A program made the translations under genes and the position numbers. From IMG/VR virus record IMGVR_UViG_3300044612_000719, positions 1 to 64,000 of that record: 64,000 nt of DNA. The stretch is one strand, 5' to 3'. Shown one piece after another: positions 59,487 to 64,000 of the stretch. Origin of the DNA: a virus. The notes under the pieces are model-generated. The model was not told the origin of the DNA and searched no databases. It worked only from the letters and a program-made list of their open reading frames with translations. Numbering within the stretch: position 1 is the first letter of the stretch; every line of letters starts with the position of its first letter.

Positions 59487-59885
59487 TTACTTACGTGGGG
59501 GAAGAGTGTCACCTGTAGATTTAGCCCAAGCGTCGCCTTCTGGGGTGCGCTGGGGGGAATGGCTTGGGATAGGTATAACGCCTTTAGAAGCCCTGGCAAC
59601 GGTTTGAGAATGCTTCAGTGCCGCTGTAGCCAAACCTTTTCTACGATGTTCTGGTGACACTTCAATTTCTAAGATTTCAGTAGCAGAATCAGGTCTTTCG
59701 GATTTTTCCCACTCCATGAATCCCACACGTCGTCCACCTTGAGGAAGCCCCAAAGCATCAATACTTCGTGATGTGTCCACGATGTCCGTTCTCCATGTAT
59801 CTGGAGTGGACTCTGGGAGGTCAGGATTAGAGCCAATAGGGTGCGTTCTGAACTGATAGTTGTTCAGGTTGTTCCTAGCAGGCAT
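59487..59885 (-). CDS. GNAT acetyltransferase with N-terminal LNNYQF tag
   Basis: VGFMEW...ILEIEVSPEHRRKGLATAAL...HS..RTPEGDAWA. Confidence 0.82.
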   Translation of the reverse strand: MPARNNLNNYQFRTHPIGSNPDLPESTPDTWRTDIVDTSRSIDALGLPQGGRRVGFMEWEKSERPDSATEILEIEVSPEHRRKGLATAALKHSQTVARASKGVIPIPSHSPQRTPEGDAWAKSTGDTLPPRK

Positions 59886-59891
59886 GTTTCA

Positions 59892-59897
59892 AGTATA
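59892..59897 (-). promoter_or_regulatory. Leftward -10 element TATACT, leaderless start at 59885
   Basis: TATACT-N6-ATG, the same spacing as 11 other sites in the window. Confidence 0.7.
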
Positions 59898-60022
59898 GGG
59901 CTATTTGGGCGAGGTGGGTGGTCCGTCGGATTTTTGAATGGGGCTATTGGGCAGTTGAGCGTTGGGTGGGGCCTCTGTCCTACCCCCAGCCCCGCCACCA
60001 CGGCTCGCTTAACCATGGGGGG

Positions 60023-60123
60023 TTATCCACAGCCCGCACCCATACTGGGCATGGCTTTGCTGAGTTATCCACAGGTACTCCTGTGTACATCCTGTGGATA
60101 CCGTGGAACATCGCTGTGGAACA
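60023..60123. promoter_or_regulatory. Cluster of DnaA-box-like sites
   Basis: Perfect TTATCCACA at 60023 and 60065; inverted near-matches TGTGGATAC (60093) and TGTGGAACA (60115), plus weaker ones at 60082 and 60102. Confidence 0.6.
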
Positions 60124-60144
60124 TTGAGGGCGAACCCACGTTCG

Positions 60145-60176
60145 TATGACGTTCGTCACGTGTGACGTTCGTCACG
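60145..60176. repeat. Tandem 16-bp palindromic repeat resembling CRP/GlxR sites
   Basis: TATGACGTTCGTCACG followed directly by TGTGACGTTCGTCACG (consensus TGTGA-N6-TCACA). Confidence 0.6.
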
Positions 60177-60673
60177 CCATTGTTACAACTTCATGACAAT
60201 GTGCCCGAAATGCTTGACAAATGGAAAATGCCCTCAGACGCATCAGGAGCCATTCTCAGAGGAGGAGAGGCGGGTGCAAGGGGTCAAGGCGGACACAGGT
60301 ACAAAGTACCCTCAGAGAGCGCCTCGTATGCCTAGGAATGGGGCTATGAGCCTTACGGTGCATGGGTTTGCGGGGTATGGGTAGGTTGTACACATGCCCC
60401 ACAAGCCCCCGTATTGCTATCCACTGCACCATCGCTCCATTCCACGTATTGCACGCAACACAGCGCATCCTGAAGCGTCTCAGAGCATTCTGCAGTGTTC
60501 ATTGATCAATTGAATTCTCTGCCCATTCCATGCCTTCTCCTGCTTCTCCTGTATCTCCTCCTCCATCCGATGGATGGCTGGTCGTTGGGGGCGCCCAATT
60601 CCAGCCCTAGATCCGCTCCAGCCCTTACGGGGCTTGGCTCGGAAGATTCTCAGGAATTGTTTGAATTTGGTCG

Positions 60674-60702
60674 TTGCTATTCGTACACCCATCCACTAGC
60701 CT
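60674..60702 (+). promoter_or_regulatory. Probable early sigma70-type promoter
   Basis: TTGCTA-17 nt-TAGCCT, upstream of the structured leader and the plus-strand genes. Confidence 0.6.
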
Positions 60703-60745
60703 CCAGTCAGGAGTTGCGTTGCGGTACGGGGCGCAGTCTCCTGAG

Positions 60746-60765
60746 GTTCCTTGAAAATTGAAGAG
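60746..60765 (+). promoter_or_regulatory. rrn-leader boxA-like element
   Basis: GTTCCTTGAAAATTGAAGAG resembles Gram-positive/actinobacterial rRNA leader boxA (GTTCYTTGARAACT...), preceded by a hairpin at 60707-60744. Confidence 0.6.
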
Positions 60766-60766
60766 C

Positions 60767-60946
60767 GCCCGAATTGCTTCGGCAAAAATGCACGCATGCA
60801 TGTGGCACGTCCCCGAGTCCGCTCGGTCGGCTCGTGCCTTGCAGAGATGGCTTCAACGGATCCATGCATGCCCGCCACGGGGGAATTGAACAACAGTCCC
60901 TCACGGCGCATTACTCAACGGCTCAAACCGTTCGCTGACTTCGGGC
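60767..60946 (+). ncRNA. Candidate ~180-nt multibranched structured RNA
   Basis: Nested helices read by eye: 60767-73/60940-46, UUCG hairpin 60774-85, 60787-91/60908-12, 60794-802/60863-71, 60804-09/60833-38, 60813-17/60822-26, 60879-84/60897-902, 60917-21/60928-32. Confidence 0.6.
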
Positions 60947-60967
60947 ACATGGTTCAAATTCCTCAGC

Positions 60968-61047
60968 GTCACGGGTCATCTTCGGATGGCTCGTGGCGCT
61001 CATAGAGCACTGGGGTTCATCCCCTGACTCCAGTGCTGTATGAGCGC
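60968..61047 (+). promoter_or_regulatory. Double-hairpin leader element A (UUCG hairpin plus long hairpin)
   Basis: GTCACGGGTCATC-TTCG-GATGGCTCGTGGC then GCGCTCATAGAGCACTGGGG...CTCCAGTGCTGTATGAGCGC. Confidence 0.7.
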
Positions 61048-61098
61048 AGAGCGCTCCGCTGGCAACCAGCCAGCGCAGTCCTGAGGAGGACACACACC

Positions 61099-61617
61099 AT
61101 GAAAGCAACACGACAGCAACTACTCAATCTCGGAGCCAGCATCCTGAGCACTGCCTATGAAGGCGGGTCTTGCGGAATGGCTTCATGGGCAGTTGCCAAT
61201 GGCACCTACAAGTGGGGCACGGAGAAGGGCGAAGGCGAATTGCACGGCAACGAGCACTACGCATCAGTCACCGTGTACGACACCGAAGCGTGCGAGTTGG
61301 TGGAAGACGAAGCCGAATTGGCGAAGTTGACCGATGACGATGGCTTCAATGGCTGGGGCGGGTTCTACCGCTTCGGCAAGCCACTCGTGATCAATGAGTC
61401 CATCATTGCTGACTTCATTGAGAAGATCGGCACAGGTGAGTTCAATCAGGACAATGTGCCTGACTACGGTCAACTGTCAATCAAGCGGGTGAGTGCCCTT
61501 GCAGGGTGCTACCTGTTCGGTGAAGACGCCATTGACGAATTTGAGTCCGACAATGACTGCATCGTGTCTGACACCATCGTGCAGTTCATCCTGCTCGGTG
61601 AGGTCACATACGGCTGA
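61099..61617 (+). CDS. Early acidic hypothetical protein
   Basis: GAGGAGG SD before ATG 61099; TAYEGG...W and D.IVQF.LLGEV.YG motifs. Confidence 0.8.
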   Translation: MKATRQQLLNLGASILSTAYEGGSCGMASWAVANGTYKWGTEKGEGELHGNEHYASVTVYDTEACELVEDEAELAKLTDDDGFNGWGGFYRFGKPLVINESIIADFIEKIGTGEFNQDNVPDYGQLSIKRVSALAGCYLFGEDAIDEFESDNDCIVSDTIVQFILLGEVTYG

Positions 61618-61623
61618 TCAATC

Positions 61624-61682
61624 CCCCAGCGCCTAGGGCGTGGCTCTTCAATGAGCACTGGGGACTGTGAGCAACCGCTCAC
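61624..61682 (+). ncRNA. tRNA-like three-way-junction element, copy 1
   Basis: CCCCAG/CTGGGG enclosing CGCC-TAG-GGCG and GCTC-TTCAAT-GAGC, then ACT and a hairpin; covaries with copy 2. Confidence 0.72.
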
Positions 61683-61708
61683 TACAACGACCTGAGGAGG
61701 TCAACACC

Positions 61709-62116
61709 ATGAACACACTCACCAAACTGTACGAGATTCGTTTCTCGGGAACGGTTGAATGCGATATGGAGCCGATCATGCACGACATTGCAGTCGCAAT
61801 TGATAAGGGCACGCTGGAAGAGAGCGACAAGGCGTTTGCCGAGTTCGTAATGGCTCCACAGCGGATCGTGGTCAAGCGTCAAGGTAACAACACCTACGCA
61901 GTGGATCTGTCCATTGAGGGCGTGATCGCATTCGCCAAAGAGGTTGCCTATCGCAAAGAAAATGCGATTGACATCCGTACCGAGGAGGGCAGTTATGACC
62001 GAAACGGTTACAACTACCACACCAAAGTGATCCGTCAACTTGACACCGCATTGAAGGGCGCCAACAAGGTGCTCGCCAGTGTCGGTATCGCTCCAGTGAC
62101 TTCATACTGGAATTGA
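61709..62116 (+). CDS. Early hypothetical protein
   Basis: GAGGAGG SD before ATG 61709. Confidence 0.8.
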   Translation: MNTLTKLYEIRFSGTVECDMEPIMHDIAVAIDKGTLEESDKAFAEFVMAPQRIVVKRQGNNTYAVDLSIEGVIAFAKEVAYRKENAIDIRTEEGSYDRNGYNYHTKVIRQLDTALKGANKVLASVGIAPVTSYWN

Positions 62117-62141
62117 GTGATTGAGTGACCTAGTCACTCAC

Positions 62142-62197
62142 CCCTAGCGCCTCGGGCGTGCCGATTCAATTCGGACTAGGGACTGGGCAAATAGCCC
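62142..62197 (+). ncRNA. tRNA-like three-way-junction element, copy 2
   Basis: CCCTAG/CTAGGG enclosing CGCC-TCG-GGCG and CCGA-TTCAAT-TCGG, then ACT and a hairpin. Confidence 0.72.
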
Positions 62198-62221
62198 TCG
62201 GAGCAGAGGAGGCTCCATACC

Positions 62222-62758
62222 ATGAAAACATCAGAGATAAAGCAGATAATTGCAAAGGATCCGAACGCTGTGTTTCGCATTGGCGGACGTGGTCGGTACA
62301 CGCACTACGGCTCAATCACCAAGATTGAGGAGAAGGTCGTGGACACCTACAGCGCATGGGGTCGTAAGTCAGGCACCCGTGTTGATGTGCGATTCACAGT
62401 GCGTTACGAGTACTTCACTCGTGGCGTTGAGGCTCAGTTTGGTTACCCCGAGAAGTTGCCTTCAGTGATACTGGACGGAAACTCGTGGACTAAGCCACGT
62501 GACATTGAATGGCACGTAGCGGACTTCGGTATGACCATTGAGGAGTACGTAGCAAAGACTGATGCTGAAGTGAAGGCGGATTGGCAAGCCAAGAAGGACG
62601 ACCAATACGCAAAGCAACAGCAGGTCAATGCGATCATCCGACACATCAGTAGCCCAACGGTTACCGATGCCGAGTGGAACGAACTCAACGATGATCTAGA
62701 GCGACTCAGTGTTCAGACATTGCAATTAATCAATCAGAAGATCGCATCACTTGTGTGA
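62222..62758 (+). CDS. Early hypothetical protein
   Basis: GAGGAGG SD; ORF track. Confidence 0.8.
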   Translation: MKTSEIKQIIAKDPNAVFRIGGRGRYTHYGSITKIEEKVVDTYSAWGRKSGTRVDVRFTVRYEYFTRGVEAQFGYPEKLPSVILDGNSWTKPRDIEWHVADFGMTIEEYVAKTDAEVKADWQAKKDDQYAKQQQVNAIIRHISSPTVTDAEWNELNDDLERLSVQTLQLINQKIASLV

Positions 62759-62769
62759 TGTGGTCGGGA

Positions 62770-62835
62770 GCATCACGGGTTCGCCCGTGGTGCCCTCACA
62801 GTGCATCGGCGTTGTGTCGGTGCATTGTGAGGGCA
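62770..62835 (+). promoter_or_regulatory. Double-hairpin leader element B
   Basis: GCATCACGGG-TTCG-CCCGTGGTGC then TGCCCTCACAGTGCATCGGC-GTTGT-GTCGGTGCATTGTGAGGGCA. Confidence 0.7.
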
Positions 62836-62876
62836 TACAATTGCCCGTTCAACTAACAGACCCGAGGAGGTCAACC

Positions 62877-63131
62877 ATGGATGCAAGTATTCACAAAGTA
62901 ACTGGGTTTCGGATTGAGAAGTCCGATGACCCACGACTCAAGACAATTGATCTCGTGATTCAATACGAGGATTTGTCGTTTGTTCGTTCCCAATATGAGA
63001 ACGGCAGTGAGTCATTCGGTTACGCAAAATTGGAGTCCACGATCACGCTGTTCATCAGTGACACCGTTGACATGGACGTGGTGGTGTGGCAAGCAATTGC
63101 AAACCTCACTTCCGATCTTGCCAATAGGTGA
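62877..63131 (+). CDS. Early hypothetical protein
   Basis: GAGGAGG SD before ATG 62877 (MDASIHKV). Confidence 0.75.
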   Translation: MDASIHKVTGFRIEKSDDPRLKTIDLVIQYEDLSFVRSQYENGSESFGYAKLESTITLFISDTVDMDVVVWQAIANLTSDLANR

Positions 63132-63148
63132 GTAATCCGCAGTGGGCA

Positions 63149-63213
63149 GTCATGGCGCAAGCCATGGCGTGCTCGGAGTGCACTGATCCCCCATCGGTGC
63201 ATTCCGAGGACGC
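63149..63213 (+). promoter_or_regulatory. Double-hairpin leader element C
   Basis: GTCATGGC-GCAA-GCCATGGC then CTCGGAGTGCACTGAT-CCCCC-ATCGGTGCATTCCGAG. Confidence 0.7.
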
Positions 63214-63254
63214 AAGTCCATTCACATTCCCTAACTGAAACTTGAGGAGGTTTT

Positions 63255-63971
63255 ATGGGAGCAATAACACCAAAGCAACAGGCATTCATTCGCACGATGC
63301 TCTTAGAGCGTGCTGTCACACTCGGTCTTGATGAGGCTGGTGTTGACCAGTACCTCGTAGATCAGAACGTGAATGCATTGTCAACTAAGGATGCTTCGCT
63401 CGTCATTGATGCGATCAAGAAGATTGAGATCAAGCGAGTGGGCACCGAGCACCTGCCGAAGGGTGATCGCACCATCGTCAACAAGATCGCCAAGCCATGC
63501 CAACTGTGCGGACACACCGTGCAGATCGGTCATGGCTGGAGCGTTCAAGTTGCCAGTGGCTGGCAGACATTCCACAAGGCTGGTGAGTGTTCAGCCGAGG
63601 TCATCGCCAAGCCAGTAGATGAGCAATCGCTCTTCGCTGATGTCAAGGATGGCTTCTATGCGTTGCAGTCAACGGGCACCAATGATCTCGTGTTCTATGC
63701 GATCAAGACCAACAAGGGCTACCACAATGCGAGCCTGAAGGGTCAACGTGGCATGTACATCGTGGTCGGCGGTCACGCTGACGAGAAGTTGCGTGGCGAG
63801 CGCTTGGTCAATTCAATCAAGCGCATCACGTCACTCAGTGAGGATGAACGCAAGCAAGCAATGACGCTGTACGGTCAGGAGATCGGGCGCTGTTGTGTGT
63901 GCGGTCGTCATCTCACTGATGAAGCAACACGCAAGGCTGGTATCGGCAACGACTGCGCAAGCAGGTTCTAG
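63255..63971 (+). CDS. Early protein with zinc-finger and C-terminal DUF6011-like domain
   Basis: CQLCG...H...C; YG.EIGRCCVCGRHLTD..TR..GIG.DC. Confidence 0.8.
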   Translation: MGAITPKQQAFIRTMLLERAVTLGLDEAGVDQYLVDQNVNALSTKDASLVIDAIKKIEIKRVGTEHLPKGDRTIVNKIAKPCQLCGHTVQIGHGWSVQVASGWQTFHKAGECSAEVIAKPVDEQSLFADVKDGFYALQSTGTNDLVFYAIKTNKGYHNASLKGQRGMYIVVGGHADEKLRGERLVNSIKRITSLSEDERKQAMTLYGQEIGRCCVCGRHLTDEATRKAGIGNDCASRF

Positions 63972-63979
63972 GTAGTCAC

Positions 63980-64000
63980 GTCACGGGCACACGCTCGTGG
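63980..64000 (+). promoter_or_regulatory. Start of another leader hairpin (truncated by the window end)
   Basis: GTCACGGGC-ACAC-GCTCGTGG, same arms as element A. Confidence 0.5.

Follow-up and report, generated by a model that had tools for sequence, protein, structure and literature searches.

The segment at 60707–60966 is best read as the promoter-proximal half of an untranslated leader of ~390 nt that heads a rightward early operon of a phage. By analogy with known systems, its 5′ hairpin and boxA-like motif probably form a Nus-factor loading and antitermination leader, and the 180-nt multibranch domain behind them is most likely a variable, lineage-specific structured spacer and not a demonstrable independent non-coding RNA (ncRNA). 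We put the probability of this combined reading, an rrn- or nut-like Nus-loading leader with the domain as its spacer, at roughly 0.55. The statistically supported RNA structure at this locus is the conserved cassette directly downstream (60947–61101), not the 180-nt domain (Table 1).

The window analyzed here comprises the first 64 kb of a 97,275-bp IMG/VR virus record that was judged complete. Several features point to an uncultured, actinophage-like siphovirus: phage relatives of its DUF6011 protein occur solely in Gordonia, Streptomyces, and Arthrobacter phages, its tape-measure protein carries VanY and transglycosylase motifs, and its ribosome-binding sites are strong (GAGGAGG). The host is probably actinobacterial, not enterobacterial. 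The genome encodes PolA, DnaB, a primase, RecA, and SNF2 helicases, and no RNA polymerase was found among the large phage proteins scanned. When RecA was searched against a genome collection, the sole relative (52% identity) was located on contig DASSHL010000151.1 (109,690 bp) of a Gemmatimonadales MAG; this contig has the size of a phage genome and could be a phage that was placed in the MAG during binning.

The leader sits in a 1.2-kb divergent intergenic region, between a leftward GNAT gene (ATG at 59885) and the first gene of the rightward early operon (ATG at 61099). The operon spans ~10 kb, ending near 70.8 kb, and contains some 25 small genes. Canonical U-tract terminators were not found in it, although strong hairpins are present. 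No N-like or Q-like protein was identified, and ARAGORN predicted no tRNA or tmRNA.

Table 1. Features of the early leader and its surroundings, in window coordinates except where L072 is named (MFE, minimum free energy; SD, Shine–Dalgarno).
Feature	Position	Strand	Details
Candidate early promoter	60674–60702	+	−35 TTGCTA 60674–79, 17-nt spacer, −10 TAGCCT 60697–702
5′ terminal hairpin	60707–60744	+	Pair probability 0.88–1.0; position of boxB in rrn leaders
boxA-like motif GGTTCCTTGAAAA	60745–60757	+	Directly after the 5′ hairpin; about 36 nt from the inferred start
180-nt multibranch domain	60767–60946	+	Closed by 60767–73 with 60940–46; MFE −68.7 kcal/mol
Three-hairpin leader cassette	60947–61101	+	H1 60970–95, H2 60996–61047, H3 61053–79
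First early gene	61099–61617	+	172 aa; weak match to phrog_2355
Similar cassettes	60947–61101, 62756–62879, 63129–63257, 63969–64000 (continues into L072); L072 2425–2549, 3382–3523

We compared the locus with 22 related loci, 13 on IMG/VR contigs and nine from metagenomes, which represent ~14 distinct leader variants and were retrieved through the protein of the first early gene and through two words of conserved DNA. The metagenome scan gave 51 loci, nine of which were true relatives and none of these with the 180-nt domain; searching with a 20-mer from the conserved upstream sequence yielded exactly the 13 contigs already known from the leader scan. The relatives are 70–80% identical to this phage over 59880–60690 and 80–90% identical from 60947 onward, and across about 60690–60946 nothing aligns. 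By eye and by folding, a single layout is common to all variants: promoter, hairpin, boxA-like motif, stem-closed spacer, A-rich stretch, and conserved cassette. The gene that comes after the leader differs among the relatives, with at least six unrelated N-termini (L008–L020), and the conserved leader is a fixed module before exchangeable first genes.

Transcription would start near 60709, judging from the sequence. At the promoter position, the relatives have an invariant TTGACA followed after 17–19 nt by a −10-like hexamer. Most variants have A as the second and T as the sixth letter of this hexamer, and two variant groups (L010 and L015/16/18) have T as the second. A G+C-rich hairpin is found at the position of the 5′ terminal hairpin in every relative, its sequence falling into five or more unrelated types. 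No co-variation was seen between hairpin type and first gene (one type precedes three different genes), and we therefore nominate no N-like partner.

The boxA-like 12–13-mer is the sole block kept in all variants between the −10 element and position 60947. The relatives carry mostly GGTTCCTTGACAA, with GATCTTTGACAA or GATCCTTGACAA in two lineages. Over the ~14 variants the motif varies at no more than three positions and has a single 1-nt deletion, while its flanks diverge, the hairpin into at least five sequence types and the spacer into three. It occurs once in the 97-kb genome, is not palindromic, and is predicted to be mostly unpaired (mean P(unpaired) of 0.36–0.73 in 11 variants). The motif agrees at 10 of 13 positions with the Bacillus subtilis rrn boxA consensus AUGAUCUUUGAAA (PMC13753749), which may not be the consensus of the host, and two related lineages match it exactly over the nine consecutive nucleotides GAUCUUUGA. 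Agreement with GYTCTTTAANA, a gamma-proteobacterial consensus that likewise may not be the host's, is 9 of 11 positions, C4 and T6 among them; in Escherichia coli, mutation of these two abolishes Nus recruitment (PMC5725501). Near consensus, placed in the leader beside a hairpin, single-stranded by prediction, and kept while its flanks diverge, the motif has these expected features of a boxA.

In B. subtilis rrn operons, a small 5′ hairpin is followed at once by the boxA-like consensus, which is reported to be bound by BsNusB (2026 study, PMC13753749). The phage leader shares with the rrn leaders of E. coli and B. subtilis a promoter-proximal hairpin and then a U-rich motif of 12–13 nt that ends in UUGA(A/C)AA and lies single-stranded in an untranslated leader. 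It differs in heading a protein-coding operon, in having neither a 16S-type leader–trailer arrangement nor an RNase III stalk, and in a C instead of U at position 5 of the motif; Nus binding here is putative.

The motif of the relatives contains a perfect TTGACA, which makes a role at the DNA level possible, as a second −35 element or an operator, with the leader acting as a stabilizing, translation-controlling 5′ UTR without Nus factors. In the commonest spacer type, CAGGCT, whose second letter is A and whose sixth is T, follows 18 nt later, and sequestration of the SD and AUG together with 5′ hairpins are ordinary stability and translation devices. However, that −10-like hexamer is absent from the second spacer type and from this phage, which weakens the case, and this phage has TTGAAA in place of TTGACA. 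Conservation also reaches 5–6 nt upstream of the hexamer, as expected of a boxA and not of a −35 element, and the motif is a single, non-palindromic copy. We consider a purely DNA-level role rather unlikely.

The first-pass annotation had enclosed the 180-nt domain in a processing stalk like that of rRNA operons, formed by pairing of CTGAGG (60741–46) with CCTCAG (60961–66) and of TTGAA (60751–55) with TTCAA (60953–57). These words are present in the sequence, as are the 5′ hairpin, the boxA-like motif, the closing helix of the domain, and the loop sequence TTGAAC (60886–91) that the annotation had listed. The stalk itself did not survive folding and comparison. Its helices, of 6 and 5 bp, have a pair probability of 0.0 in the full leader and of no more than 0.04 when the transcript ends at 60970, and enforcing them raises the folding energy from −185.7 to −176.3 kcal/mol, at a cost of 9.4 kcal/mol. 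The 3′ strand CCTCAG is invariant among the relatives; the 5′ strand is not conserved and reads CCTCGG, CGCAGG, or GGCGG, each unable to pair with it. CCTCAG pairs instead with the SD region at 61081–88 (probability ~0.9) as the anti-SD strand of the next element. The marks of an rrn-type RNase III stalk, a long stable duplex and pairing kept in relatives, were both absent. Of the rrn-like organization originally proposed, the succession of hairpin and boxA-like motif is supported, being kept in all ~14 variants and ordered as in B. subtilis rrn, and the RNase III stalk is not.

The proposed multibranch structure was reproduced. It is both the MFE and the centroid fold in the full 399-nt leader, with a closing-helix probability of 0.8–0.998, and the full 5′ UTR folds as three independent domains: the 5′ hairpin (pair probability about 1.0), the multibranch domain, and 60947–61101. 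The multibranch domain folds only marginally better than shuffled controls. On the plus strand, z was −1.69 for 60707–60966 (11 of 200 shuffles as good) and −2.28 for 60767–60946 (5 of 200); the corresponding minus-strand values were −1.17 (22 of 200) and −0.78 (29 of 200). The inferred 5′ UTR as a whole (60703–61101) gave z = −7.36, with 0 of 100 shuffles as good.

We found no homologue of the domain. It was absent from all 22 related loci, and blastn of 59800–61700 against 50,697 phage records gave no match. BLAST of the domain against its own genome returned only chance words of up to 16 nt, and exact-word scans of IMG/VR with a 28-mer from the boxA flank and a 20-mer from within the domain gave zero matches. 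A single-sequence covariance model (R1) run over 286 kb recovered only the self match at 231 bits, with the next best at 11.9 bits (E = 0.86). A MAFFT alignment of the domain with the spacers of the relatives yielded short common words only (GCACGCA and GCGCATT), too weak for homology. Rfam 15 gave zero matches at the gathering score over the 64 kb, and relaxing the limit to E values of up to 10 over 59800–61200 added three chance matches with E above 5, none inside 60707–60946. Covariation within the domain, which had been suggested as a check, is not showable because no homologue turned up in anything searched, so that the refuting condition named in the first-pass annotation, a lack of covariation in homologues, applies by default. 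The domain has neither a curated family match nor homologues with covariation to mark it as an ncRNA gene or a member of a known family. The absence of a credible open reading frame was confirmed: those that overlap the domain have no SD and no Pfam match, and the relatives lack the sequence.

These results bear on the stable 180-nt ncRNA whose release had been suggested earlier, a suggestion left unsupported by the negligible stalk and by the lack of a homologue in anything searched. A functional lineage-specific ncRNA (decoy, antitoxin, anti-defense RNA, or ribozyme), carried as leader cargo and released by processing, would fit a fold that is somewhat better than shuffles on the plus strand only (z of −2.28 vs −0.78), an autonomous domain with a high-probability closing helix, a position right at the head of the earliest transcript, and a slot that varies among close relatives as expected of accessory cargo. 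Against it, neither BLAST, exact-word scans, nor the covariance model found a homologue, Rfam gave nothing, the processing stalk is neither conserved nor stable, the longest helix is 9 bp (short for RNase III), and the relatives do without the domain. We regard such an ncRNA as very unlikely. A related idea, in our view a long shot, is that the slot is a hypervariable cargo site occupied here by a functional RNA such as an anti-defense decoy, which would appear first during infection, with host RNases releasing it; if this were true, the hairpin–boxA pair would be the first rrn-style, N-independent antitermination signal in an actinophage-like lineage.

The 180 nt could also be neutral recombination filler with the helices that a 60% G+C sequence gives by chance, and a z of only −2.3 with 5 of 200 shuffles as good, a z of −1.69 for 60707–60966, and the status of a singleton without covariation all agree with that. 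It is nevertheless an unlikely account: every relative has a stem-closed structure exactly there, with z of −1.9 to −3.2 and compensatory changes, and in this phage the closing-helix probability exceeds 0.8 and the folding signal is strand-asymmetric. In the relatives the slot holds an irregular stem-closed hairpin of 50–95 nt, in two alignable types, with compensatory changes in 4 of 17 pairs; the 180-nt multibranch structure is found only in this phage. We favor the structured spacer because the slot is structured in all variants and the domain folds independently, shows a modest plus-strand bias, and has no homologue; its putative role as a spacer is argued from non-conservation. The fold, which occurs once and in a slot that varies, does not warrant an entry as a new RNA family.

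The −10 element of the promoter, the 5′ hairpin, the motif variant, and the spacer are all unique to this phage, and both flanks are conserved. The closest relatives by flanking sequence have a short spacer, including L010, whose first gene is 98% identical. The simplest history suggested by this pattern is that a module of ~260 bp (~60690–60946) was swapped in from an unsampled phage of the same architecture.

The cassette at 60947–61101 stands in a different class. Its MFE was −89.9 kcal/mol vs −51.3 kcal/mol for shuffles (z = −9.8, 0 of 200 as good), and it is 80–84% identical in the relatives despite the at least six different genes that come after it. RNAalifold predicted 53 pairs from 13 variants, 10 of them with compensatory changes. 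The anti-SD at 60959–66 is predicted to pair with the SD region and 60948–53 with the start-codon region; the SD-region helix is invariant and therefore uninformative for covariation, and in one relative (L010) a compensatory change lends support to a local SD hairpin that competes with it.

Many early genes show SD hairpins. In the operon, about six intergenic cassettes of a similar kind were seen, the one at 60947–61101 being the first, each with a tetraloop hairpin, a 16–21-bp hairpin, a short hairpin, and an SD hairpin; such cassettes may be RNase III or stability elements. Small three-way junctions before an SD hairpin, at 61615–61711 and 62114–62224, form a second class of early-gene leader, and words like those of these elements recur in intergenic regions of the relatives.

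The evidence for Nus loading is the architecture common to the 22 loci and a motif that is conserved, unique in the genome, predicted to be mostly unpaired, and near the boxA consensus; we also counted the repeated hairpins of the operon, the lack of a phage RNA polymerase among the proteins scanned, and the likeness to the lambda nutL layout. In the mechanism that we propose, host RNA polymerase would start at the promoter, which is of the sigma-70/sigma-A type, and the nascent RNA would fold the 5′ hairpin and then expose the single-stranded boxA-like motif. In the manner of rrn leaders and lambda nut sites, the motif would load host NusB/S10 and other Nus factors, and the polymerase would then withstand Rho as well as the numerous strong intergenic hairpins downstream. 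For mycobacterial RNA polymerase, hairpins that lack U-tracts do not act as terminators (PMC3993855); with this behavior and no U-tracts at the hairpins of the operon, the target of antitermination would be Rho or pausing. The 180-nt domain, as a structured spacer that probably has no sequence-specific job, would separate the boxA from the next element and keep the long untranslated leader folded, making it a poor substrate for Rho or RNases. The cassette would sequester the SD and AUG of the first gene and might be opened or cut for translation, for example by RNase III in the ~21-bp H2, as in the lambda N leader.

By this analogy of arrangement, the lambda nutL–N leader comes closest, among known systems, to the layout as a whole. 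In lambda, N follows nutL at a distance of ~200 nt, with a highly structured, RNase III-processed leader between them, and translation is repressed through the Nus/N complex (PMC5725501). The phage leader resembles pL–nutL–N in belonging to the first early transcript, in combining a boxA signal with a hairpin, and in its long structured leader with an occluded ribosome-binding site; as in lambdoid nut sites, the hairpin varies among related phages and boxA is constant (PMC5725501). Unlike in lambda, where boxA comes before boxB, the hairpin here precedes boxA, as in rrn operons. A homologue of N was not found either, and the first gene differs among the relatives of this phage without co-varying with hairpin type.

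Two other systems share part of the design. The early RNase III sites of T7 are intergenic hairpins in a polycistronic early mRNA, and here too long, near-perfect hairpins recur between early genes, the conserved cassette being the first. The phage cassettes differ in adding tetraloop and SD hairpins, cleavage of them is putative, and the helices of the 180-nt domain are all too short for RNase III. The put element of HK022 is a cis-acting antiterminator RNA of about 70 nt with two conserved stem-loops that needs no boxA. Like put, the structured RNA studied here follows closely on an early promoter and might alter the polymerase; unlike put, the 180-nt domain is not conserved, and no sequence or Rfam similarity between them was found.

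If the module loads host Nus factors, this freshwater phage clade would be a case of non-lambdoid phages copying the design of an rrn leader, and such a copy would protect the long early transcript. One boxA combined with five types of hairpin and three of spacer would then also offer a simple natural test-bed.

Upstream of the early promoter, a 0.8-kb block (59880–60690) is 70–80% conserved and shows no preferred reading frame. Within it, the segment 60023–60174 contains two perfect DnaA-box 9-mers (60023 and 60065) and an inverted copy matching at 8 of 9 positions (60093–60101), and the DnaA boxes are invariant in 12 relatives. They are followed by two TGTGGAACAT repeats and a tandem 16-mer (60143–60174). 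This DnaA-box region beside the early promoter is a candidate replication origin or DnaA-dependent control region.
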